Source: Poseidonia sp.
GTDB taxonomy: Archaea; Thermoplasmatota; Poseidoniia; Poseidoniales; Poseidoniaceae
Direction: 5' to 3'
DNA length: 64,000 nt
Assembly: GCA_965661285.1 (NCBI GenBank)
Contig: CBFIDD010000002.1
Coordinates: forward strand, 1-64,000
The position numbers and the translations under genes are program-made. Of this stretch, positions 8,573-35,804 are shown one piece after another (position 1 is the first letter of the stretch; every line of letters begins with the position of its first letter). The notes under the pieces were generated by a model that saw nothing but the letters and a program-made list of their open reading frames with translations, did no database searches and was not told the origin of the DNA.

Positions 8573-9130
8573 ATGTACAAGGTTGTAACAAAGGAAGACA
8601 CCATCCGCATTCCTGCGGAATACATGCGCAAGGGTCAATCCCTTGACCAACACATCGACCGTCTCTCGATGGATGCCTTCGAGGGTAAATTCGATTCAGA
8701 GAACCGTTTTGTTTTGGTCACCAACAACCATAAGACCATCGGACGAGGTCGAATCATTCACGGTGATGGCGCCATTTACCAGCGCGTTCAATTTGATGCC
8801 GTCTTGTTTTGCATGGACGACCAAGAAGTCGTTGAAGGCGCCGTCTCAGAAGTGAACGAATTCGGCGCATTCGTCCGCATCGGCCCAATGGAAGCCCTGC
8901 TTCACAAATCACAAATCATGGATGAACCGGTCGACATCAACATCGGTGCCAACAAAATCACCGGGCGTCAGTCCGGACGAGAACTGTCCATCGGGTCCTT
9001 CGTTCGTGCCCGAATTGTATCGCTTTCACCTGACACGTCAGACCCACGTCGCTCCAAGATTGGTCTGACCAGCAAGCAAGACGGACTCGGCTCCCCGCAG
9101 TGGGAGAAGAAGAACGCAGGCGGTGAGTAA
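8573..9130 (+). CDS. rpoE1: DNA-directed RNA polymerase subunit E' (Rpo7)
   Basis: MYKVV..EDTIRIP, GRIIHGDGAIY, EFGAFVRIGPMEALLHKSQIMD, KIGLTSKQDGLG; SD GAGGTGA upstream. Confidence 0.95.
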   Translation: MYKVVTKEDTIRIPAEYMRKGQSLDQHIDRLSMDAFEGKFDSENRFVLVTNNHKTIGRGRIIHGDGAIYQRVQFDAVLFCMDDQEVVEGAVSEVNEFGAFVRIGPMEALLHKSQIMDEPVDINIGANKITGRQSGRELSIGSFVRARIVSLSPDTSDPRRSKIGLTSKQDGLGSPQWEKKNAGGE

Positions 9131-9132
9131 AG

Positions 9133-9336
9133 ATGGTCAAAAACCCCTTTGCTTGCGGTGAGTGCCACCTCGTCCTCAACGACGGTATCGACCAGTGCCC
9201 CCGTCATCCCTCAGCATCCGTCTCATCCGATTGGACGGGCTATGTCATCATCATTCAGCCGGAGCGATCAGAAATCGCTGAGCGATTGAAGGTGGAGCAA
9301 CCTGGAAAATACGCACTCAAGGTCAACATTCGATGA
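9133..9336 (+). CDS. spt4: transcription elongation factor Spt4 (RpoE'')
   Basis: ACGECH..CP zinc ribbon, SDWTGYVIII.PERSEIAERL, PGKYALKV; canonical position after rpoE1. Confidence 0.93.
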   Translation: MVKNPFACGECHLVLNDGIDQCPRHPSASVSSDWTGYVIIIQPERSEIAERLKVEQPGKYALKVNIR

Positions 9337-9346
9337 AGGTGAGAAC

Positions 9347-9673
9347 ATGGAAATCAAGGAACGAAGAGAAAATAAAATTCTAAACCGGGTTGAAATCGCT
9401 TTCAGCTGGAAACACGACACAAAATCGACGCCCTCCCGCAAAGAGGTCATGGACCTTGTCCAGACGCTCGAACCCGGTGCAAAACAAGATCTCATCGTCA
9501 TCAAAGACTGTGTGACGCGATTTGGTCAGCCCTTGACAACAGGAACGGCGTACATCTACGCCACGCAGGAAGCGATGGCCGTTGAGCCAGCGTACATTCA
9601 CAAGCGGCATGCAGGTCTTCGCAGTGGAACACCATCCGAAGATGCTGGTGCACCTGAGGGAGGCGATGAGTGA
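9347..9673 (+). CDS. rps24e: 30S ribosomal protein S24e
   Basis: [35 protein letters not shown]. Confidence 0.92.
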
Positions 9674-9840
9674 TGGGAGACGGTCCGAATCCTAAAGCAA
9701 AGCATTCCAAGTACAAGGTTGAGGACGGCAAGCTCGTTCGTGCTGAGTCATGTCCTGAGTGCGGTCCCGGCGTTTTCCTCGCTGTCCACGGCAACCGCAA
9801 ATCCTGCGGTCGCTGCGGCTACACCGTGATGACTGAATGA
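9673..9840 (+). CDS. rps27ae: 30S ribosomal protein S27ae (55 aa; below the ORF-track cutoff)
   Basis: Manual translation [55 protein letters not shown]; [12 protein letters not shown]...CGRCGYT is the S27ae signature; TGATG overlap with rps24e. Confidence 0.93.
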
Positions 9841-9856
9841 CCACACCGTGGTTTTC

Positions 9857-10828
9857 TCAGAAGGGACTCGTTTCCCATGAGCCATCGTTGAACAGCACAA
9901 GTGCACTGCGGACAACGGGGCATATGTGAACGGGCAATTCTTTGGTAGCTCGGCGGTCAACCACACGGTCTGATATCACGACTTCTTCGCGCCAGCCGGC
10001 GATTCTCCATCCTTCTATCTTTGAATCCCATGTTGCATTCTGCACCGGGCCACTCAACTGGAGATGGTGCTTGACCTCATTGTTGTAACTCCAGGTCACT
10101 CTTCCGGTTGCAGAACAAGCGAGGTGTTGACCCCCGTGTACGAAGTGATGTTCAAGAGGAGCTTCAACACCTTCGAGCAAAAATTCCTCAACGAGTTGAC
10201 CTGTTTCAAGCGAACGTCGCTGCACACGCCCTCCTTTTGATGTGATCAGAAAATGGTTTTCCTCAAGATGCAAAGCGACCACCTCTTCATTTCGTGGGCG
10301 TTTTTTCGGGTAGCCCCAATCCGAGGGCGGCATTCGCCAGTGCTCTTCGGCGCCGATACCGATTTTGTACATGCCACGATTGTAGAGGTCGAACACGACC
10401 GAATCCTCGTTACTCACCAATGCCATGGGTTCCGCATCAAGGGCATGGGCCCATGTGGTTCCAGCAGGGTAGTGATTGGTCCGAGTTCCAATCGACGTTC
10501 GAATTTCAGAGCGCTTTTTTCCCTCTTCTGCAGTTCCAACGGGCATGGAGGCCATGCATGCGACAAGCAGTTCACGGTCCAGCCACGTAGCGATGAGTTG
10601 ACCCTGCGAAATGGAGGCTTGGCGCATGCGCATCGGATGGGGACATTTGACCTCGGTGAGCGGTTTCATTTCCTGGTCCAACCAGAGAAGTTCACCTTCC
10701 ATTCCAGATACCATCACCCCTTCATCGTGGTGGACAACGAGGTCCGGTAGGAAGGGGATTGGGGGTGGGAGGTCCGCGTCCATGATGGGAAACCGGCGCA
10801 CCGGTATGTGAATGCTCGTCTGCGTCAT
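9857..10828 (-). CDS. hypothetical protein, possibly beta-propeller
   Basis: Long ORF with beta-rich repeats ending in W; start chosen at MTQTSIH to avoid overlap with divergent dtdA. Confidence 0.65.
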   Translation of the reverse strand: MTQTSIHIPVRRFPIMDADLPPPIPFLPDLVVHHDEGVMVSGMEGELLWLDQEMKPLTEVKCPHPMRMRQASISQGQLIATWLDRELLVACMASMPVGTAEEGKKRSEIRTSIGTRTNHYPAGTTWAHALDAEPMALVSNEDSVVFDLYNRGMYKIGIGAEEHWRMPPSDWGYPKKRPRNEEVVALHLEENHFLITSKGGRVQRRSLETGQLVEEFLLEGVEAPLEHHFVHGGQHLACSATGRVTWSYNNEVKHHLQLSGPVQNATWDSKIEGWRIAGWREEVVISDRVVDRRATKELPVHICPVVRSALVLFNDGSWETSPF

Positions 10829-10858
10829 TTCCAAATAGGACCCGGTTGAGGGTTGTGC

Positions 10859-11812
10859 ATGGATGATGCGACGGTGATTCTCATCGCTGTCAATCAACAG
10901 GACATCGCCAGCACCAACCAAGCCAAAGCCTTGCGGAGCATGGACGAGTGGCGGGAAATGCCATCGGTCGAAGGCAACCCCGCCTACGCTTTGGAGCACC
11001 TGAGGATGCTCTACCTTCCGGACGGTCTTCTGTTTGAAGACCACCTTGAATCACGCTGGGAAATGGCGACGGGTGAACGGGTCTCGGAGATCATCTTTCC
11101 ATCGCGCCACGTCGCCGCCAGCGGTCGCCCTTCGCTCACCCTTCATCCGATTGGTGTGCCACACTTGCCAGCGGGTGAACAAGGCCCCTATGGAGGCCAA
11201 GGCGGGCTGCCCCCTCCCCCCTCCCCTCGTCTAGCACCGTGGTGGAAAATGCTCCTTCAGCAAGCAAAGCAGGAAAACAGCGTTGAGGGTTTTGATGTCT
11301 CGCTTGAGGTGACCCACCACGGTCCGAATGTGGCGGTCCCCACCTTGTTTATTGAGGTGGGTTCAACGGAGGCCACATGGGGCCATGTCGGTGCCGCAGA
11401 ACTCTTGGCGAACGTCATGAGAAAGGGTTTGCTCGAACAACCAAAAACCACCTGGTGCCCCGAACGCAACGAAGGCGAACTTGTTCTTGTCACCCTTGGC
11501 GGTGGGCACTATGCTCCTCGAGCGAATCAATTGGCAGCGCTGGACGGTGTTTGGCTCGGCCATATGTTGGCAAGCTACGCGTTGCCGTTTGAGCAGATGC
11601 CTGACGGTGAGGTAGGTGGGACGTGGAAGCCATCCATCCTCGCTGCATTGGACAGCACGCGTCGTTCTTTCCCCGGTGGGAAACTCGTTTGTTCAATGGA
11701 CAAAAAGGCGTTTCGAGGTTGGCAGCGTCAAGCGGTTCGAGCATTGCTTCACGAAGAGGGCATTCCTCTGTTGACAACGAAACAAATCAAGGCGCATCTC
11801 GGCCTTGTATAG
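10859..11812 (+). CDS. dtdA: D-aminoacyl-tRNA deacylase (archaeal DTD2 type)
   Basis: DIASTN, IFPSRH, SLTLHPIG, EVTHHGP, FIEVGSTE, GGGHYAPR, GHML motifs. Confidence 0.92.
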   Translation: MDDATVILIAVNQQDIASTNQAKALRSMDEWREMPSVEGNPAYALEHLRMLYLPDGLLFEDHLESRWEMATGERVSEIIFPSRHVAASGRPSLTLHPIGVPHLPAGEQGPYGGQGGLPPPPSPRLAPWWKMLLQQAKQENSVEGFDVSLEVTHHGPNVAVPTLFIEVGSTEATWGHVGAAELLANVMRKGLLEQPKTTWCPERNEGELVLVTLGGGHYAPRANQLAALDGVWLGHMLASYALPFEQMPDGEVGGTWKPSILAALDSTRRSFPGGKLVCSMDKKAFRGWQRQAVRALLHEEGIPLLTTKQIKAHLGLV

Positions 11813-27392: not shown

Positions 27393-28376
27393 ATGGCTAA
27401 GATTGCCGTCACCGACGGGATGGATGAAAAAGCGGTTGCACAGCTCGAAAAAGCCGGTCACGAGGTGGTCCTCGGGCATATCGATCAGGACGCACTGCTC
27501 CAAGGAGCCCTGCAGTCCTTTGATGCCATCATCGTTCGAAGTGCAACCAAACTCACCAAGGACGTCTTGGAGGCTTCCGGAGAGCGCCTTGCAGTCATCG
27601 GTCGGGCTGGCGTGGGTGTTGACAACATTGACTTGAAGACAGCCGGTTCTCTGGGCATACGTGTCGTCAACGCTCCTCGTGCCAGTACCCAGTCGGTCGT
27701 CGAGCTCACCTTGGGCCATCTTCTGGCCTCCATCCGTCATCTCCCCCGGGCCGATCGCAGTCTTCGAGACGGGAAGTGGGAAAAGAAAGCCATGAAGGGG
27801 TCAGAACTTTCCGGAAAAGCTCTCGGTCTCATCGGTTTTGGCCGAATTGCTCAATCGGTTGGCCGAATTGCTCAAGCCATTGGAATGGAAGTCCACGCCT
27901 ACGACCCCTACCTCCCTCCAAAGGTAGCGAAAGCCCAAGACACACGGCTGCACAAAACATTGGAGTCGTTGTTCTCCAATTGCACCCACATCTCCATTCA
28001 CTGCAACCTGACGGAAGAAACCCATCACCTCGTCAACGCCGAGCGGATTGCCTCCATGCCCCACATCGGCAAAGACGGGGCTCGTTGTGGGAGTCACATC
28101 GTCAATTGTGCTCGAGGCGGTATTGTCGACGAAGATGCCGTCCTCGCTGCTCTTGAATCGGGCACGCTCACGTCGGCAGCCTTGGACGTCTTTGAGGACG
28201 AACCGGTCCCACCGGACCACCCGCTCCTCCAGATGGAGCACTTTCACGGCACGCCACACATCGGGGCTGCTACCGTTGAGGCACAAGAGCGGGTCGGCAC
28301 CGATATCGCTACCAACGTGATGGCCGTCCTCGCAGGTCGCCCGTGTGATTTTGTGGTCAATTCCAACTTCTTGTAG
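27393..28376 (+). CDS. serA: D-3-phosphoglycerate dehydrogenase / D-2-hydroxyacid dehydrogenase (no ACT domain)
   Basis: IVRSATK, GRAGVGVDNID, GLIGFGRIA, VNCARGGIVDE, LDVFEDEP, TPHIGAAT.EAQ. Confidence 0.85.
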   Translation: MAKIAVTDGMDEKAVAQLEKAGHEVVLGHIDQDALLQGALQSFDAIIVRSATKLTKDVLEASGERLAVIGRAGVGVDNIDLKTAGSLGIRVVNAPRASTQSVVELTLGHLLASIRHLPRADRSLRDGKWEKKAMKGSELSGKALGLIGFGRIAQSVGRIAQAIGMEVHAYDPYLPPKVAKAQDTRLHKTLESLFSNCTHISIHCNLTEETHHLVNAERIASMPHIGKDGARCGSHIVNCARGGIVDEDAVLAALESGTLTSAALDVFEDEPVPPDHPLLQMEHFHGTPHIGAATVEAQERVGTDIATNVMAVLAGRPCDFVVNSNFL

Positions 28377-28440
28377 CACTTTCACTTTCAACACCCGGGT
28401 CTGGCATAAGCATGCCGTGCTCCTTCGGGCTGAGCGTGTC

Positions 28441-28710
28441 ATGGGTCGAAGTGTGCCACCATGGCGAACGCGAGTGGAGAACGAATTGCAGCAATTGATG
28501 CCGTACCGTCGAGCCCTCTCGTCGGTTGATCGTGCTGCTTTTGATGCCCTTTTGGATGCGGTGCGTGAGCGTCGCGCTGCGGGAGGAATGCTTCCAGCCA
28601 TCAACACCTGGCAGCCCACAGTTCTCAGCATGATGGTGGGTTTGATGGCTCAGGTGTCGCAGCTCACCGAACGCGTTGAAGCGCTTGAGGAACGGCGTCG
28701 CCATGATTGA
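28441..28710 (+). CDS. small helical PolB2-associated protein (arCOG07300-like)
   Basis: MGRSVPPWR...YRRAL...DRAAFDALL...VLSM...coiled coil resembles, from memory, the small gene that precedes archaeal PolB2; its stop overlaps the polB2 start (ATGATTGA). Confidence 0.75.
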   Translation: MGRSVPPWRTRVENELQQLMPYRRALSSVDRAAFDALLDAVRERRAAGGMLPAINTWQPTVLSMMVGLMAQVSQLTERVEALEERRRHD

Positions 28711-31207
28711 GGGTTGGTTGCTGGACGTTCACGAGAACGAGACACACACCGAGATGGTGGCGTGGGTTGTTGACGACCAAGGTGTTGCCCACGGGTGTGC
28801 TGTGCCTTGGACGCCTTCGATACATGTCCACGCCTCCCATCGCTCTTTGGACCGGTTAGAGCACTGGTTGAACCAACCCGAATTGCGTCAGCGTTTTGGT
28901 ATTGGCGCCATGGTTCCAACACGTGCTCGATTGGACCTTGAGGCCGAAGGCCAGGCCGATGTTCTCGACATCACCTTGCGTTCTTACCACCACATGCGGG
29001 CCCTTGCAGAACACATTGAAGCGCGCGGTGATTTTCATCGGTACACGCTCTACTCGGTCGATGCCCATCTCGCGCAGCGCTTCCTGAACGAACACGCCTG
29101 CATTCCGTTTCAACGGGTTCGTTGGAATCCTTCGGTGCCAACCTTGCTCGAACCGATCAGCGCGGCTGAAACCGACACCGTCGAGTTCCCGCCGCTATGT
29201 GTTGCTCGCCTCACCCTTCAATTTGCAGAGGGTGGTGGTTTGCCTGCACAAGGTGACGTTGTTGAACGCATTTGTTTGGAAACGGTTCTTGAGCCGGGTT
29301 TTTCTTCTCCCAGAACAACCCATTCCGCTCGTCTTGAACGGAGCGAATTTCCATCGTTGGCTGCCTTCCTCAATGCTTTCCAAGCGGTTTTTGATGATGT
29401 CAACCCTGATGTCGTTGTGACCGCAGGCGGTGACCAGCGTTGGTTCCCATGGTTGGTTGAACAAGGCCACATCCATCAGGTTCCACTCGTTCTCGGGCGG
29501 ACACCCGAACACTTGCGCCAATCGACCGGCCAGCGTACCGTTCACTCCTACGGGCAAACTCGACATCGTCATGGTTCCTTCTTTCTCAAAGGTCGACTTC
29601 ACCTTGACGTAAAGAACAGTTTCATCGTCAACGAGGGTGGACTTGCGGGCTTGTTTGAACTGGCACAACACTCTCGCCAATCGGCCCAAATCATTTCCCG
29701 ACTTTCTCCAGGTTCGGTCATCAGCGCCATCCAAATGCGGGTGGCCATGGATGACGGTGTCTTGGTGCCGTGGAAGAAAAACCGGCCTGAAGACACAAAG
29801 TCTGCGCTGGACCTTCTCCATGCTGACCGAGGAGGTTTGTACCTTGATAGCCGACCAGGGGTACATTCTTCCGTGATTGAACTTGATTTTGCAAGTTTGT
29901 TCCCGAGCATCATCGCGACACGCAACATCTCTCCTGAGACGCTGAATTGCTCTTGCTGTCAAGCGTCCGCCGCTTCCACGACGCGGGGTGTTGTCCCCTT
30001 GCATCCAGATGAGGCTGGTCAAGAGTTTCGTGAACGTGCGATGGTCTCACGATTTGGTCACGGGCTTTTCCCGCTCGCGAACGAAAAGGCCCTCTCCGTT
30101 CCCGGCCTCAACATGCACACATGTGGCCGCAAGCACGGCTTTCTCGGGCGTGTGGTCGCACCCATCATTGAGCGCCGTCGAGTTTTGAAGCGTCAGCGTC
30201 AGCACAAAGGCGACGCCTTTGACCTGCGACAAAACGCCCTCAAGTGGCTGCTCGTGACGTGCTTTGGATACACCGGTTACCGCAATGCGCGTTTTGGGCG
30301 TATCGAGGCACACGAGGCGATTTGTGCATGGTCTCGAGATCTTCTACTGACCACGATTGAAGAGGCTCAAAACGACGGGTGGGATGTGCTTCATGCCATC
30401 GTGGATTGTGTTTGGCTCTCCGATACGAAAGGGCGCTCACCCGAGCAACAGCGGTTGGATGCAGAGGACTTTGGAATCCGTATTTCCCAACATGTTGGTA
30501 TCCCTCTTGAGTTTGAAGCACACTACGATTTCATTGCGTTTCTCCCGAGTCGGATGCACGGTTCGGGGTCGCTTACCAAATATTGGGCCTTGGCGGGTGA
30601 TGAATTCAAAGTTCGTGGCATTGAGTTGCGCCAACATTCCACTCCACGATGGGTGCGTGAACTTCAGCAAAAGGGGTTGGAACTTCTGGCAAAAGGGGAG
30701 CGCGTTGACGGACGTCCTTCCCTTCGGGCTCAACGGTCGGTGTTGGCCCACTATCGGGGCGAGCTTCAGCGATTAAATTCCGGCGAGGTTTCGCTCGTCG
30801 ACCTCGTGATCACGCGACGAACCACGCGACACTTGGCCGATTATCGCGTCAAGAACCTGACCTATGGGGCACTCCTGCGAGCCCATGAACGCGGATATGT
30901 TGTCCCGCCGGGAGGGAAAATTCGTTATGTCGTCGTGAATTCATCGTCCAGCGAACCTCTGGATCGTGTCCGTTTGGCTGAGGAACTCCCCCTTTGTCAA
31001 GCCGCAACTGCTGGATGTCCAGTCCATTATGGCGAACTCGCTGAACGCGCCGTATGGGCGCTTCTTGCGCCGTTCGGTTGGACAACAGAAACACTTCGAA
31101 GCGACGGGGTTCAACCGAGTCTCTTGATGTTCACGCGTCGCGATGAAACAGAGGGAGAACGCCGACCGTTTGACTCCTCGTTGACCGGTCAAAGCTCTGT
31201 TCGTTGA
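28703..31207 (+). CDS. polB2: family B DNA polymerase, PolB2 group
   Basis: GWLLD N-terminus, DRGG, motif A ELDFASLFPSII..NISPET, motif B LKWLLVTCFGYTGY, FGRIEAHEAI, motif C HAIVDCVW, KVRGIELR. Confidence 0.9.
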   Translation: MIEGWLLDVHENETHTEMVAWVVDDQGVAHGCAVPWTPSIHVHASHRSLDRLEHWLNQPELRQRFGIGAMVPTRARLDLEAEGQADVLDITLRSYHHMRALAEHIEARGDFHRYTLYSVDAHLAQRFLNEHACIPFQRVRWNPSVPTLLEPISAAETDTVEFPPLCVARLTLQFAEGGGLPAQGDVVERICLETVLEPGFSSPRTTHSARLERSEFPSLAAFLNAFQAVFDDVNPDVVVTAGGDQRWFPWLVEQGHIHQVPLVLGRTPEHLRQSTGQRTVHSYGQTRHRHGSFFLKGRLHLDVKNSFIVNEGGLAGLFELAQHSRQSAQIISRLSPGSVISAIQMRVAMDDGVLVPWKKNRPEDTKSALDLLHADRGGLYLDSRPGVHSSVIELDFASLFPSIIATRNISPETLNCSCCQASAASTTRGVVPLHPDEAGQEFRERAMVSRFGHGLFPLANEKALSVPGLNMHTCGRKHGFLGRVVAPIIERRRVLKRQRQHKGDAFDLRQNALKWLLVTCFGYTGYRNARFGRIEAHEAICAWSRDLLLTTIEEAQNDGWDVLHAIVDCVWLSDTKGRSPEQQRLDAEDFGIRISQHVGIPLEFEAHYDFIAFLPSRMHGSGSLTKYWALAGDEFKVRGIELRQHSTPRWVRELQQKGLELLAKGERVDGRPSLRAQRSVLAHYRGELQRLNSGEVSLVDLVITRRTTRHLADYRVKNLTYGALLRAHERGYVVPPGGKIRYVVVNSSSSEPLDRVRLAEELPLCQAATAGCPVHYGELAERAVWALLAPFGWTTETLRSDGVQPSLLMFTRRDETEGERRPFDSSLTGQSSVR

Positions 31208-31916
31208 GACGAAAACGAGTTTGAGCGATGTTCTCGAAGGGGCGCCAGTGTCCTTGAAGCCCCGAACGAGGATGTCGGAGGTGCAGTGCTCTCCTTCGCC
31301 GACTTCCTGTCCACGTACCGATGAGGTGGTTTTGAGCGTGGCGGTGAAGATGTTGAAGCAAACGTGCATCGGTGTGTTGCGAGCGAGGCGATCCCGTGAT
31401 GACGACCACAGCGGCGTGCTGGTGTTCGGCCAGTTGCCGTAAGAGACCAACATGTCTTCGGAACAAGGTTCTGGATTCAAGCCTCGAAATCGCATCATCG
31501 CTGTGCATGGCGAGCAAACCGTCAATCACAATGACGGGGGCACGGGTGATGGCCAGTTCATTTGGGAGGCGTTCGATTTGTCGGTCCAATTGATGCAGTG
31601 TGAATCCTCGACTCAAGTACAAACGTGCGAGACACGCCTCAACATCTGCTCCAAGCCGTTCCAAACCTGGAATGAAACGTGAGGGGTCAATTCGGCAGGC
31701 ACCGTCCACCCAGTGCACCACTTCGCCTTGTGCCAAGGCGTGAACGGCCCAATGTTCTGCAACACATCGCATGCTCTTGCCTGCCCGTCCGGGCCCACTC
31801 AAGTGGTAGAGTTGTCCTCGCACGGGCACAAGCGTGGTTGGGTCAATGCCTCTTCGGCGTTGGATGAGGTCGGTGTTCAGCCGTGATGTCGCTTGGTGGT
31901 GTTGCATACGAATCAT
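31131..31916 (-). CDS. degenerate RadA/RecA-like ATPase (ImuA-like)
   Basis: GID...RGQLYHLSGPGRAGKS (Walker A-like), VHWVDG...DP, LYLSRGFTLHQL (RadA/RadB RAFT-like), VIVIDG (Walker B); start could be 31907. Confidence 0.75.
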   Translation of the reverse strand: MIRMQHHQATSRLNTDLIQRRRGIDPTTLVPVRGQLYHLSGPGRAGKSMRCVAEHWAVHALAQGEVVHWVDGACRIDPSRFIPGLERLGADVEACLARLYLSRGFTLHQLDRQIERLPNELAITRAPVIVIDGLLAMHSDDAISRLESRTLFRRHVGLLRQLAEHQHAAVVVITGSPRSQHTDARLLQHLHRHAQNHLIGTWTGSRRRRALHLRHPRSGLQGHWRPFENIAQTRFRLNEQSFDRSTRSQTVGVLPLFHRDA

Positions 31917-32015
31917 TGACGGTCGTCAAACGGGGTCTTCAATACTTAGGAGGACCCCTCGGTTGAACTGAACATCCACATCAAGTTCAAACACCATCGG
32001 CGTCGATGGGCGATT

Positions 32016-33146
32016 GTGCTTGGGCAAGACGCAGGTGGTGCGGTTGGTGGTCCGAGAATCATCATTCACTGCGACTTGGATGCGTTTTTTGCAGCGGTTG
32101 AAACCCTTCACCACGGCTTTGACCGCGATGTACCTTTGATCATCGGTTCAGATCCGAAACAGGGACGGGGTCGCGGCATCGTTTCTACCTGTAATTACGC
32201 GGCGCGCGTCTACGGAATACGTTCGGCCATGCCCGTTTCCGAGGCGTGGCGCCGGTGCCCTGCAGCGCCGTTTGGCCCGGCCATCTTCATCCGAGGAACA
32301 CGTGGCCTCTACAGCCGAGCGAGTCGAAAAGTCATGGCGGTTCTTTCGGAAATGGCGGACCTGTTTGAAAAGGCGAGCATCGATGAGGCCTATCTCGATG
32401 TGACGGAGCGAGTAAACGGGGATTGGGATGCAGCACTCGCCCTTGCAAATATTCTGCAGCAGCGTATCTTTGAAGCGGTCGAGTTGACGGCTTCTTTTGG
32501 CATCGGGCCAACTCGTCTCGTGGCCAAGATGGCGAGTGAGGTGAACAAACCCAACGGAATCTTTCGTGTTATGCCTGACGAACTGCAGTCGTTTTTCGAG
32601 GGTCGCTCTCTCCGAGATATCCCGGGGATTGGACCAAAACGCGCAACCCAGTTGGCAGAGTGGGGCTACACAACGGCCGACGAGCTTTACGGTTTGGGTG
32701 AACTTTCCCTTGCAAGGCTCGCAGGTGAGCGATTTGCTGCTTGGTTTGTGCGAGTTGTTGATGGAGAAAGCAGTTCGGTTGTCAGTCCTCTGCGGAGTCG
32801 GAAATCCATTGGGAAAGAGCACACGTTTGAACGCGACCAAGAGGACCATCAACACGTGGTGGAGCGCCTCGAACAATTGGTATCGTTGGTCATGGAACGG
32901 GCTGCACATCTCGGTGTGTCTGGTCGGTTGGCTGAAGTCAAAATTCGCTACACGGGATTTGAAACCCATACCGCTGGCCGGAGCATACCGGTGGCGATGG
33001 ACGAAACGTCGGTGTTCAAGCGGCTGGCGAACGGGTTGTTTGCCACCAGTGTTCGCCCGGATTCAACCGTGCGCCTCATCGGGTTTCGTTTGGGGCAGTT
33101 AGAGATGCCAGCATTCCGTCAGTCCACGCTGTTTGAGGAAGAATAG
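32016..33146 (+). CDS. dinB: DNA polymerase IV (Y family, DinB/Dbh)
   Basis: IIHCDLDAFFAAVE, GIVSTCNYAAR..GIRSAMP, SIDEAYLD, AKMAS..NKPNG, IPGIG, KSIGKEHTF, C-terminal QSTLF. Confidence 0.95.
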   Translation: MLGQDAGGAVGGPRIIIHCDLDAFFAAVETLHHGFDRDVPLIIGSDPKQGRGRGIVSTCNYAARVYGIRSAMPVSEAWRRCPAAPFGPAIFIRGTRGLYSRASRKVMAVLSEMADLFEKASIDEAYLDVTERVNGDWDAALALANILQQRIFEAVELTASFGIGPTRLVAKMASEVNKPNGIFRVMPDELQSFFEGRSLRDIPGIGPKRATQLAEWGYTTADELYGLGELSLARLAGERFAAWFVRVVDGESSSVVSPLRSRKSIGKEHTFERDQEDHQHVVERLEQLVSLVMERAAHLGVSGRLAEVKIRYTGFETHTAGRSIPVAMDETSVFKRLANGLFATSVRPDSTVRLIGFRLGQLEMPAFRQSTLFEEE

Positions 33147-33148
33147 TT

Positions 33149-35641
33149 TCATTCCAACTTGTGCATGCGCGTCAGTGTTGCCGAGAACTCTCCCAGCAAT
33201 TCCGGGACAGGCGTGTCGGAGATGGGCTGGTTGAGCGAGATACCGGCTTCTTTCTTTTTGGCCCACACGTGCCCGTTGAATTCCTGCAGTGCGTGCGAGA
33301 GGCTACAGAGCCGTTCACTTTCGTCGGTGCCAAAGGCCACATCCTCGAGCGCAGGTGAAGGGAAGGCATCAACATCCACGGCCGATGTTCCGTAAACGGT
33401 GCTGGTGATGTGGTGGGTAAAGAAGGGGCAGACCGGGCTGAATGCCGCCATGAAATCACGGACAATACGGTGAAGGGTCCAAGCCGCTGCCTTGTCCTCA
33501 TCGTAAAGTCTTGATTTGACCATTTCGAGGTAGTGGCTTGGCAACAGCCCGGTTCCAAAGGTTTTGAGCGCCTGCGTCGCCGTATAGATGTCAAGATTGG
33601 ACCACGCATCGTTCACGGTGTTCATCGTGTGATGGAACTCGGCGAGGATCCAGCGGTCCTCCGAAGCGAAGGATGCGGGAGGCGTTTCAAGGTCGTCGGG
33701 AACTTCAAATTGGGACGCAAATCGGGCAACGTTGAACAATTTCGTCAACACACCGAAGTATTTCTTTTCGATTTCTTCGGGGTTGATATGGAAATCATCG
33801 CCAACTTGGGCATCACAGGCCTTCCAAAGACGGAAACATTCACTCCCGATTTTGTTTGCTCGCAGTTTCACGGAGCCATCGGGGCCCTTGACTTGCCATG
33901 CGCCGGTCCGGCCGCCAGCTCCGCACTCGAGAACCGAATCAGCATCGATGCCGTTGCCGAGGGATTTGCTCATTTTTCGTCCCCAAGGGTCCATGCCGAG
34001 GCCATCGATCCAAACGTGTTGGAATCCAGGTTGGTCGAGCACAAGTGTTGATTTTAGGAGTGTGTAGTAGAGCCAAGTCCTGACGATTTCTTTGCCTTGA
34101 GGGCGTAAGGCTGTTGGAAAGGCATTCTCAAAGATATCTGGGTGGTTGAGATAACCGCTGACAAAGAGGTTTGAGTTGGATGAATCCATCCATGTGTCAA
34201 ACACTTTTTCCTCGCCCCTGATCTGCCCGAGAGTCTCGGCGATGTCCGCAAAAGCACCCAAATCTTCTCTCGAATCTCTGTCCAGCACTCGGCTGCCCTT
34301 CGGCGGCATGTCCTTCCAGGGTTGCACGTAGGTTCCGGAGGGCGGAACGACGACCTTTGTTTCGTCTTCACTGTACCAAATTGGAATCTCAGTATGGTAC
34401 CATCGACGTCGGCTGATCGGCCAATCAATGCTGATGTTGTCCATCCAGTCGAGTAAAAATTGGCGATTGCGCACCGGATGGAAATTGATGGATTCAATGT
34501 GCTCACGCATGCGGTCTTGGATGTGGGTTTGGCGCACATACCACTCCTTGAGGAGGATGATTTCAACGGGGTTTTTTCCTCGCTCTGACACCGGGATATC
34601 CTGGTCTCGCTCAACGGCTTGAACCAGACGCCCTTCCTCTTGGAGCAGTTCGATCGCCTTTGTGCGTGCTTCGAGGACCGAAAGGCCGTGGAGAGGACCG
34701 GATACCTCCGTCATTTTGCCATCCAAATCAATGGCTTGGAACGGTGTTAATCCCAGTTCACGGAAGACGGCAACATCGTTTTGATCGCCGAATGAACACA
34801 CCATCAAGACGCCGGTTCCGAAATCTGATTTGACCGAGGGATGCTCCTGTATTGATACGGTCGTTCCGCGATCGCTGACGCCCAGTGGGAGGGTAATTTC
34901 CTGACCCACAAGGTGCTTGTAGCGAGCGTCATCCGGGTGCACGACCACCACGCCGCAGGCGCAGATCAACTCCGGCCGTGTGGTGGATATCACCAAATCC
35001 GTTCCGTCTTTGCATGTCCAACGGACATCGACAAGCTTTGTTTTTCGTGGCAAACGTTCGACCTCAGCATCTGCGATGGTGGTCCCTTCGACGGGGTCAT
35101 AGATGTTGGGGCGAAGGTCTTCGATAATGTCACCTTTCTTGAACAGGTCCACGAAAATAGACTGTGTCACGCTGCGGTAGTCTGGAGCGTCGGTCAGGTA
35201 TTCCCGAGAGAAGTCACAGGAAAGGCCGACTCGTTTTGCCGTGTTTCGCATCGCTTGTGTGAAGGATTCGATGGTGGTTTCACACAGTTGGAGGAATTCT
35301 TCCCGGTCATAGGTCTTCATTTTCCGTTTGGTGTTCTTTTCCACCGTGAACTCGATATTGATCCCGTTGCGGTCCACGCCCCACGGGAAATAGACTTCCT
35401 TGCCAAGCAAACGCTGACTCCGAGCAAGGACATCGATCATGGAATACTGGGCTACGGCACCGATGTGCCATGTGCCTGAAGGATAGGGTGGGGGGGTGTC
35501 GATGACAAACAGTTCCTTCTCACTCTCGGGGTTGAAGGCGTAGCGTCCACTGTAGGCTGCATCATCAGCGTAGTGGGCTTCTTGGATGGTCTTTTCAAGG
35601 TCAATGGACCATCGTTTTTCTGGTATTTTTGGGGCTGGCAT
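33149..35641 (-). CDS. valS: valine--tRNA ligase (archaeal type)
   Basis: IDTPPPYPSG.WHIG (HIGH), STTRPEL, DFGTG, DWPISRRR, FDTWMDS, RPQGKEIVRTW, KMSKS. Confidence 0.93.
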   Translation of the reverse strand: MPAPKIPEKRWSIDLEKTIQEAHYADDAAYSGRYAFNPESEKELFVIDTPPPYPSGTWHIGAVAQYSMIDVLARSQRLLGKEVYFPWGVDRNGINIEFTVEKNTKRKMKTYDREEFLQLCETTIESFTQAMRNTAKRVGLSCDFSREYLTDAPDYRSVTQSIFVDLFKKGDIIEDLRPNIYDPVEGTTIADAEVERLPRKTKLVDVRWTCKDGTDLVISTTRPELICACGVVVVHPDDARYKHLVGQEITLPLGVSDRGTTVSIQEHPSVKSDFGTGVLMVCSFGDQNDVAVFRELGLTPFQAIDLDGKMTEVSGPLHGLSVLEARTKAIELLQEEGRLVQAVERDQDIPVSERGKNPVEIILLKEWYVRQTHIQDRMREHIESINFHPVRNRQFLLDWMDNISIDWPISRRRWYHTEIPIWYSEDETKVVVPPSGTYVQPWKDMPPKGSRVLDRDSREDLGAFADIAETLGQIRGEEKVFDTWMDSSNSNLFVSGYLNHPDIFENAFPTALRPQGKEIVRTWLYYTLLKSTLVLDQPGFQHVWIDGLGMDPWGRKMSKSLGNGIDADSVLECGAGGRTGAWQVKGPDGSVKLRANKIGSECFRLWKACDAQVGDDFHINPEEIEKKYFGVLTKLFNVARFASQFEVPDDLETPPASFASEDRWILAEFHHTMNTVNDAWSNLDIYTATQALKTFGTGLLPSHYLEMVKSRLYDEDKAAAWTLHRIVRDFMAAFSPVCPFFTHHITSTVYGTSAVDVDAFPSPALEDVAFGTDESERLCSLSHALQEFNGHVWAKKKEAGISLNQPISDTPVPELLGEFSATLTRMHKLE

Positions 35642-35804
35642 GTGCCTCACCTGGCCCCTCCTCGGTCACTGAGGGGGGTCCAATCCGTCGGATGTGGGGC
35701 ATCATTTCAACCCGTCGGCTCAATCATGAAAGACAACCGTCAAACGTCCATGGCGAAGGTAAGCCTTTGAAGGTCAATGGTTTCGGTGTCGTTGAGGTGG
35801 TGTC

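Follow-up and report, generated by a model that had tools for sequence, protein, structure and literature searches.

The window studied here is a 64,000-nucleotide (nt) stretch of Poseidonia sp. (order Poseidoniales; assembly GCA_965661285.1, contig CBFIDD010000002.1, positions 1 to 64,000, forward strand), which encodes between serA and valS the family-B DNA polymerase PolB2, its small partner PPB2 (arCOG07300), the RadA-like iRadA and the Y-family polymerase DinB. We consider it probable that the first three form the known PolB2 mutasome cassette, that this cassette belongs to an ultraviolet (UV)/damage regulon together with radA and that it sits in a serA-dinB-valS backbone, with DinB as a neighbour. 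The account is built on the observed gene identities, motifs, synteny and distribution of a promoter box; the four genes themselves are confirmed. What is new is a radA-type UV box on both cassette promoters and its order-wide regulon.

The promoter of PPB2 and PolB2 carries a box, CACTTTCACTTTCA, that holds two tandem ACTTTC hexamers and of which the 11-mer TTTCACTTTCA (28380-28390) ends 50 nt before the PPB2 ATG. This 11-mer is identical to an element that Boubriak et al. 2008 (PMC2556686) described ~50 bases upstream of radA1, the strongest UV-B-induced gene of Halobacterium NRC-1, and also before vng17, vng280 and top6B, all UV-B-induced, with similar sequences at radA of other haloarchaea and Methanospirillum. 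Both the sequence and the distance of about 50 nt to the start codon are shared, as is the presence at radA. The predicted Poseidoniales element differs in that a WD40-like gene, the PPB2-PolB2 genes and iRadA are preceded by it as well. Since the box lies upstream of radA and of the WD40-like gene as well, and is identical to the Halobacterium UV-B box, the cassette is predicted to be part of the radA regulon and would be inducible by UV or DNA damage. A literature search retrieved no paper in which PolB2 operons of Poseidoniales are connected with the box or with DinB, although preprint supplements may hold more, and no follow-up of Boubriak 2008 on a factor binding the box. What is quoted here and below from Boubriak 2008, Makarova 2014, Timinskas 2025, Le 2017 and Sun 2018 refers to the retrieved portions of these papers.

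The promoter box and its distribution

Upon alignment of the 90 nt upstream of PPB2, a CACTTTCACTTTCA-like sequence was found in every genomic context of the cassette within the order. With a scoring matrix trained on these regions, 62/71 PPB2 upstream regions reach at least 14 bits. The 70 distinct box sequences all have TT at positions 5-6, and 69 of them A8; the commonest box start is found 64 nt before the PPB2 ATG (22/71). The box is followed by the TATA-like ATAAGCAT, and relatives show A-rich elements at the same place. Judged by its position, this element, if it acts as TATA, would imply a leaderless or short-leader PPB2 mRNA. For iRadA the likely core promoter is an inverted repeat around the A/T-rich AATACTTA, and close relatives show a similar GGGTC-N-GACCC pattern upstream of iRadA. 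In the public metatranscriptome X20 (6% of sampled words) two contigs of 203 and 238 nt correspond to 31600-31802 and 31842-32079 with 4-7 differences; they give no sign of transcription, starts or levels, and other runs resemble DNA.

The exact 14-mer CACTTTCACTTTCA is unique in the 1.98-Mb genome G000, where only 24 of 3.95 million positions reach at least 14 bits; the background rate was taken from this genome alone, and the genomes of sister family f3 (see below) are more A+T-rich. The best hit in G000 is the PPB2 promoter (24.3 bits), followed by a site upstream of a gene of 187 amino acids (aa) beside a TFB gene, with the ATG 50 nt past the box (22.3 bits), a site upstream of radA (Rad51 4e-87; 19.9 bits, with a second inverted copy of 16.1 bits) and one at the 3' end of the gene for the RFC small subunit (19.3 bits). 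This last box (G000:C1:97446-97465; L086:1447-1466) lies on the RFC small-subunit stop codon together with an overlapping copy of 13.1 bits, and no clear gene follows it on that strand.

Three sets of upstream regions, those of iRadA, radA and the 187-aa WD40-like gene, are independent of the training of the matrix. Before iRadA the box reaches at least 14 bits in 31/71 loci, ~60-69 nt from the start, including loci with an iRadA-dinB or an iRadA-SRAP spacer. In 50 genomes of the order the same score is reached upstream of radA by 36 in antisense and by 12 in sense. The two facing copies at radA (G000:C5:102146-102179; L085:3147-3180) are 6 nt apart, score 16.1 bits on the plus and 19.9 bits on the minus strand, and precede the first possible start codon by ~90-125 nt; across the order, conservation is higher for the antisense copy. 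The WD40-like gene has a sense box 62-69 nt upstream in 28/30 orthologous loci, with protein identity down to 28-40%. This gene (G000:C1:52896-53456; L084:1397-1960) lies outside the window. Its AlphaFold2 model, with a predicted local distance difference test (pLDDT) of 89, consists of 16 strands followed by a helix at the C-terminus and corresponds to half a WD40 propeller of 7-8 blades. All clusters in which the family was seen are from Thermoplasmatota, and we regard the gene as a candidate new member of the damage regulon.

A similar Sulfolobales damage element, 5'-A(N)TTTC-3', is bound by Orc1-2 (Le 2017, PMC5817253; Sun 2018, PMC6061795). In Sulfolobales it is a non-palindromic ACTTTC hexamer upstream of the B recognition element (BRE)/TATA of damage-induced promoters; two ACTTTC copies are found in tandem here, whereas the distance to the presumed start site is 47-58 nt here and 39-44 nt in Sulfolobus. 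The window's genome has two Orc1/Cdc6 paralogs, neither of which is near the cassette.

The upstream region of dinB is different. An element of its own, AAGTTCAAACACC in the window, precedes dinB whether or not the cassette is present, and as AAGTTCAAACAC or CATCAACTTCAAGCAC it is conserved in most cassette-free dinB loci, those of genera g1 and g2; in other genera it is replaced or absent. The box was sought in 28 dinB loci without adjacent cassette (cassette absent or elsewhere), of 54 such genomes, and none of the 28 has a hit of at least 12 bits in either orientation within 200 nt; two reach 10 bits. Among linked dinB loci 14/38 do reach at least 12 bits, that hit being the iRadA box. Because dinB has its own promoter element and the box is lacking in all 28 cassette-free loci, we regard DinB as a lineage-specific neighbour.

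Linkage of dinB and its history

The survey comprised 201 genomes of the order, in families f1, f2 and f3. PolB2 is present in 93 (f1 68/99, f2 0/2, f3 24/99; 31/31 in the window's genus) and DinB in 107 (f1 97/99, f2 2/2, f3 7/99). Both are found in 68 genomes, all of f1; among the 99 genomes of sister family f3, which include 24 with PolB2 and seven with DinB, none has both. In 53 of the 68, dinB lies downstream of PolB2 on the same contig and strand, at a gap of 746-3139 nt that is mostly ~750-940 nt, the size of iRadA. In the other 15 PolB2 and dinB are on different contigs; one of these, G140, is uninformative because its PolB2 is near a contig end. The initial annotation had stated that its proposal of a joint translesion locus would fall if dinB were unlinked in most relatives. 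With 53/68 linked this objection fails, and the linkage is therefore real.

Maps made by tblastn of the fetched loci show a conserved backbone, nudix-MBL-membrane-serA-dinB-valS-RND. The genes serA, dinB and valS are contiguous in two f1 genomes without PolB2 (L004, L005) and in two f1 genomes with the cassette elsewhere (L007, L009); in L011, also f1 with the cassette elsewhere, serA adjoins dinB and ~2.5 kb of extra DNA precede valS. The three genes are contiguous in f3 locus L016 too, and serA adjoins dinB in f2 locus L018. The cassette-free serA-dinB spacers differ between L004, L005 and L007, L009, some measuring ~250-300 nt and others ~50-70 nt; the long ones could be deletion scars of a lost cassette.

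PolB2 loci were fetched for the window and a chosen set of 72 of the 92 other positive genomes. The cassette lies in the serA/dinB context in 38 of the 73 loci. Eight f3 loci have a SRAP gene (PF02586, ~1e-50) divergent from iRadA, six have a class-II-like photolyase gene directly upstream of PPB2 (TIGR00591 5e-70, under its cut-off) and 21 have other neighbours, several of these contexts being conserved. The cassette occurs in at least six contexts besides dinB and recurs beside three damage-tolerance genes, those of DinB, SRAP and photolyase.

A FastTree phylogeny was built from 70 PolB2 sequences, three rows having been dropped for length or stops. It places f3 apart from f1, and within f1 it has DinB-linked clades for genera g5, g4, g1 and g2. 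Except for long-branch L023 (g8), the unlinked f1 cassettes (g7, g3, some of g1 and g2) all fall in a single clade of support 100. This clade is sister to linked g2 (support 98), and its g1 members form a supported branch of their own beside the g2 members. On the tree the DinB-linked state changes three times, two of these changes being forced by supported branches. The branching suggests one old placement beside dinB that was kept vertically, followed by one relocation. Because the relocated cassette is now in four genera, it may have spread between genera; the direction is not given by the tree.

Four genomes of the window's genus, L039-L041 and L008, have no dinB-linked cassette; their cassette is found elsewhere and their PolB2 groups with g2, g3 and g7, apart from the remainder of the genus (support 99-100), which may be replacement by transfer between genera. 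Linked locus L022 (G030, ~8960-11210) has an insertion of ~2.2 kb between PolB2 and iRadA.

For comparison outside Poseidoniales, we inspected 20 PolB2 loci of further families of Thermoplasmatota. None has DinB within 3.5 kb; their gene order is mostly a co-directional iRadA-PPB2-PolB2, and SRAP is found in two. In L200, from another Thermoplasmatota family, three tandem SRAP-like stretches lie beside PolB2.

Proteins of the locus

The features are collected in Table 1. The PPB2 ATG lies inside an open reading frame (ORF) at 28345-28710 (+) and that of PolB2 inside ORF 28676-31207 (+), and the two genes overlap by 8 nt (ATGATTGA). PolB2 and iRadA converge with a 77-nt overlap of their 3' ends (31131-31207), iRadA and dinB diverge with 99 nt between their starts, and valS on the minus strand begins 2 nt past the end of dinB at 33146. 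Pfam and NCBIfam matches and the ORF coordinates bear out the gene identities of the initial annotation. PPB2 matched no family in the Pfam search; an NCBIfam match to an IS110 transposase (18 bits vs cut-off 140) was discarded as noise.

Table 1. Genes and predicted sequence elements of the locus, in window coordinates
Feature	Position	Strand	Remarks
serA-like D-2-hydroxyacid dehydrogenase	27393..28376	+	Upstream backbone gene, start approximate; Pfam 2-Hacid_dh_C 2.3e-55
Tandem box CACTTTCACTTTCA	28377..28390	+	Directly past serA stop; PPB2-PolB2 promoter
TATA-like A/T-rich ATAAGCAT	28406..28413	+	15 nt past box, 27 nt before PPB2 ATG; putative role
PPB2 (arCOG07300)	28441..28710	+	89 aa, helical; N-terminal arm MGRSVPPWR
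PolB2 (Dpo2-type family-B polymerase)	28703..31207	+	834 aa; Pfam DNA_pol_B 6.3e-19
PCNA-box-like QPSLLMF	31112..31132	+	PolB2 residues 804-810, then variable 24-aa tail
iRadA	31131..31916	-	261 aa, convergent with PolB2; Pfam Rad51 3.8e-5
Inverted repeat GGGGTC...GACCCC around A/T-rich AATACTTA	31932..31958		Likely iRadA core promoter, ~25-32 nt from ATG; putative role
Degenerate box copy GATGTTCAGTTCAA (iRadA sense strand)	31963..31976	-	6.1 bits; 60 nt upstream of iRadA ATG, 6 nt from dinB element
dinB upstream element AAGTTCAAACACC	31983..31995	+	20 nt before GTG; upstream of dinB with or without cassette
DinB (Y-family DNA polymerase IV)	32016..33146	+	376 aa, GTG start; IMS, IMS_C, PRK02406
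valS	33149..35650	-	Downstream backbone gene; Pfam tRNA-synt_1 5.7e-73

The order PPB2>PolB2><iRadA was found in 72/72 relatives' loci that hold both PolB2 and iRadA, so that the arrangement is not due to chance. In 72/72 loci iRadA is on the opposite strand to PolB2, and in 62/71 the 3' ends overlap. Adjacency of three genes, as in the PolB2 mutasome, is thus present; the convergent orientation of iRadA is unusual. In the sister family the overlap amounts to 115-142 nt, the iRadA tail being an antisense reading of the conserved SPFGW region of PolB2, and QTSLLEF-like motifs precede this tail in iRadA.

PolB2 was aligned with the Deep Vent polymerase. Motif A is intact (LDFASLFPS vs LDFRSLYPS), motif C reads HAIVDC vs YIDTDG, with IVD where replicative PolB has DTD, and ExoII is disrupted (AGGDQRWF vs YNGDSFD). 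With the first Asp of DxD replaced, the exonuclease motifs disrupted and motif A intact, the protein has the features of the PolB2 group of family B. IVD is also listed as motif C for the Poseidoniaceae rows in the supplement of Timinskas 2025 (PMC11791011). In 43 PolB2 sequences with 41-80% identity to that of the window D395 and D568 are invariant, as are ~140 columns in all, and open frames of ~800 aa are kept in nearly all 93 positive genomes. In-frame stops interrupt otherwise full-length PolB2 in G006 (TAG) and in G086 and G045 (TGA), which could be pseudogenes, sequencing errors or recoding.

PPB2 has MGR[ST], W8 and R9 in 72/72 loci, and M1, G2, R3 and R9 are invariant in 50 sequences, eight of them from other Thermoplasmatota. 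According to its AlphaFold2 model (pLDDT 92.9) helices follow residues 1-7, which are outside helix or strand and form the least confident block (mean pLDDT 83). A helical protein of ~90 aa with an MGR arm and Arg at 3 and 9 is what PPB2 is known by.

The Rad51 match of iRadA slightly exceeds the cut-off (23.5 vs 22 bits). Walker A (GPGRAGKS) and Walker B (VIVID) are both kept in the window's protein; the genome's own RadA has IDTE where iRadA reads VDGA, a change that removes the catalytic Glu. In many relatives the P-loop is degenerate or deleted.

DinB matches Pfam IMS (9.4e-39) and IMS_C (5.8e-18) and NCBIfam PRK02406, DNA polymerase IV, with 275.2 bits (cut-off 256). Upon alignment to the solved Pol IV 7yll, IIHCDLDAFFA and SIDEAYLDVT are intact, and by these motifs DinB is, as had been claimed, predicted to be a catalytically intact Y-family Pol IV.

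Both polymerases have C-terminal motifs resembling a PCNA box. QPSLLMF comes after the conserved LAPFGW block of PolB2; its L807 is invariant in 43 sequences. L-x-x-[FWY] follows PFG[WVL] in 67/71 PolB2 proteins, 31/71 having Q at position 1 of the motif (-3 from L), and f3 has the canonical forms QTTLEAWV and QSSLEVWM. DinB ends in RQSTLFEEE, which has no aromatic residue at position 7; RQxxL and the acidic tail are kept in linked and unlinked genomes, some having QTTLDFV or QATLDAF. Clamp motifs are usual in archaeal polymerases. PolB2 is, from the conservation of QxxLxxF, probably tethered to PCNA. A complex prediction of PCNA with PolB2 residues 765-834 scored 0.02, which counts neither for nor against binding. 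The initial annotation had proposed a clamp-tethered two-polymerase complex, of which the conserved C-terminal Qxx(L) motifs in both proteins hold and the clamp-tethered or four-protein complex is not supported.

Published systems, rival explanations and meaning

The initial annotation was right on the association of PolB2, arCOG07300 and an inactivated RadA, which had been published (Makarova, Krupovic and Koonin 2014, PMC4104785), where a role in replication regulation is also discussed. The names PPB2 and iRadA were given to the two partners by Timinskas, Timinskas and Venclovas 2025 (PMC11791011), whose model is a heteropentamer, PolB2:iRadA:PPB2x3, in which PolB2 binds iRadA via a motif like that of Rad51 oligomerisation; they describe an MGRT arm that includes R3 and R9, and report that some PolB2 or iRadA proteins have clamp motifs. 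Many Poseidoniales operons are in their group '3b (PPB2-PolB2-iRadA)', and by eye the first 60 residues of PolB2 in the Candidatus Poseidonia rows look ~85% identical to those of the window's protein. For the 95 group-3b operons Supplementary Table S1 of that paper gives IMS in 46 neighbourhoods, 2-Hacid_dh_C in 45, tRNA-synt_1 in 42 and Lactamase_B in 32. IMS is listed 56 times across all 1823 operons and for 10/1728 outside group 3b. The serA/DinB/valS neighbourhood was therefore already tabulated, and the arrangement, put forward as uncharacterised, is not: Poseidoniales make up much of group 3b, with DinB in 46 of the 95 neighbourhoods. It is, however, undiscussed there, since 'Poseidon' occurs 0 times in the retrieved main text, where DinB is named in the introduction alone; in the retrieved part of Table S1 no group 3b operon has orc1/cdc6 listed as a neighbour. 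The window's locus shares with the published mutasome three families in the order PPB2-PolB2-iRadA, the IVD motif C, the MGR(T/S) arm and the loss of the RadA catalytic Glu. It differs by an iRadA that is convergent with its own promoter (72/72 here, the genes in the paper being mostly co-oriented) and, in the window, keeps Walker A. Whereas the hidden Markov model of Timinskas 2025 reports no PCNA motif in the Poseidonia sp. rows inspected, the QxxLxxF position is conserved here.

The only characterised member is Dpo2 of Sulfolobus islandicus, which is damage-induced, extends mismatches and lesions and is required for targeted mutagenesis, whereas Dpo4 is neither damage-induced nor required (Feng et al. 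2022, PMC8764526). Dpo2 is active with the same IID/IVD motif (PMC8764526, PMC11791011, as retrieved). Both enzymes are exonuclease-less B-family polymerases with a variant motif C, but the marine one is known from sequence, and in Sulfolobus dpo4 is unlinked and not co-induced and the damage element is the Orc1-2-bound A(N)TTTC.

Two further systems invite comparison. Bacterial ImuA-ImuB-DnaE2 and Pol V (UmuD'2C-RecA) likewise combine a polymerase, a RecA-family protein and a small subunit for damage tolerance. ImuB is an inactive Y-family scaffold and DnaE2 a C-family polymerase. Here we find an intact Y-family protein and a mutasome polymerase of family B, and there is no LexA. Membership in imuABC was rejected on the first two grounds, the likeness being architectural only, and the archaeal counterpart of imuABC that had been proposed turns out to be the published PolB2 mutasome, with a DinB intact unlike ImuB and a polymerase other than DnaE2. 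In eukaryotic bypass Pol eta, Pol iota or Rev1 inserts and Pol zeta extends. As there, an inserter of the Y family would be combined with an extender that is of family B, exonuclease-dead and multi-subunit, the two being encoded adjacently here; a Rev1-like bridge is lacking, and cooperation in Poseidoniales is conjecture.

On the preferred reading, the cassette, which sits between serA and dinB in the serA-dinB-valS backbone of Poseidoniaceae-type marine archaea, would have PPB2 translationally coupled to PolB2 and the convergent iRadA expressed from its own promoter. At both cassette promoters the TTTCACTTTCA box precedes a TATA-like element. According to published models and to what is known of the homologous Dpo2 of Sulfolobus, PolB2 would be a proofreading-less extender, held with a PPB2 trimer and one iRadA. 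DinB is an ordinary Pol IV, and any inserter-extender cooperation with PolB2 would take place at the pathway level. We infer that the cassette is inducible, that PolB2 binds PCNA and that the proteins form a complex, and the same holds for whatever role DinB may have.

Several observations weigh against this reading. The linkage with dinB has held through four genera (g1 27/32, g2 10/16, g4 10/10, g5 6/6), which could reflect selection and not only inertia, and in the sister family this divergent position is taken by SRAP, another damage-tolerance gene. The window's clade has a degenerate iRadA box (GTTCAGTTCAA, 6.1 bits), and outside the order no hit of at least 13 bits was found upstream of PPB2 in the 20 PolB2 loci of other Thermoplasmatota (best -17 to 3.9 bits), so that the link to the regulon is lineage-limited. 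As its Walker A is intact, the window's iRadA may still bind nucleotide. In linked loci the iRadA box is 2-20 nt upstream of the dinB element, an activator-like distance, and at radA the box is mostly antisense, so its orientation may not matter. Since the box adjoins the dinB element and is not fixed in orientation at radA, co-regulation of dinB by a bidirectional effect across the shared iRadA-dinB spacer is possible.

A rival proposal is that the four genes are one translesion unit, in which DinB inserts and the PolB2 mutasome extends, co-induced from the shared iRadA-dinB region and acting on one PCNA ring. It would account for the linkage in 53/68 genomes, always on the same strand with dinB past an iRadA-sized gap, for a box that is central in the divergent spacer of 99-130 nt, beside the dinB element, and for the conserved Qxx(L) motifs of both polymerases. 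The extender role of PolB2 fits as well, Feng 2022 (PMC8764526) having asked whether Dpo2 has a partner polymerase, and the SRAP and photolyase neighbours in other contexts point to a damage theme. We nevertheless find it unlikely, since the backbone occurs without the cassette, dinB has its own element and no box in any of the 28 cassette-free loci, the linkage has a single origin with loss or relocation, the sister family never combines its 24 PolB2 and seven DinB, and DinB is adjacent in none of the 20 loci elsewhere in the phylum. Moreover, Sulfolobus Dpo4 is dispensable for Dpo2-dependent mutagenesis and not damage-induced (PMC8764526). What stands of the four-gene unit that had been proposed is hence the three-gene PolB2 mutasome; DinB as fourth member is not supported, given the cassette-free backbone, the lack of the box (0/28) and the few linkage events. 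We also doubt, to much the same degree, that the radA-type box between iRadA and dinB is a bidirectional UV-responsive site, by which DinB and the PolB2 mutasome would be co-induced with radA for two-polymerase bypass on PCNA, as one arm of a damage regulon of euryarchaea that is marked by TTTCACTTTCA and that haloarchaea would have as well.

Less likely still is that the box marks replication or cell-cycle expression, the cassette serving replication restart or origin-independent replication, as Makarova 2014 (PMC4104785) suggested, and not translesion synthesis. The strong box copy where the RFC small-subunit gene ends, the replication-regulation role discussed in that paper and the box before top6B in Halobacterium (PMC2556686) would agree with this, but the Halobacterium box genes were identified through UV-B induction (PMC2556686), Sulfolobus Dpo2 is a damage-induced extender of lesions and mismatches (PMC8764526) and the neighbours of the cassette are photolyase, SRAP and DinB. 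It is hardly credible that, as predicted before 2020, PolB2 and iRadA are non-functional and the cassette a remnant that is inactive or in decay. The loss of the first Asp of motif C, the degenerate exonuclease motifs, the variable or deleted Walker A of iRadA in relatives and the in-frame stops in a few of them (G006, G086, G045) could be so explained; the frames of ~800 aa open in nearly all positive genomes, the ~140 invariant columns, the invariant N-terminal arm of PPB2, the conserved promoters and the published activity of Dpo2 with the same motif C speak against it.

Marine Group II (Poseidoniales) are abundant, uncultured archaea of sunlit surface waters, and we know of no account of their DNA-damage response. 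Taken alone, the locus is unremarkable, being a published polymerase module with a common DinB next to it. The gain is a testable predicted regulon, in which the Halobacterium UV-B box is found at radA, PPB2-PolB2, iRadA and the WD40-like gene across the order. The box genes provide a marker set for diel or UV metatranscriptomes, and the box a handle for finding the euryarchaeal damage regulator. Genomes in which dinB is linked, unlinked or without the cassette form a natural experiment on cooperation between DinB and PolB2.

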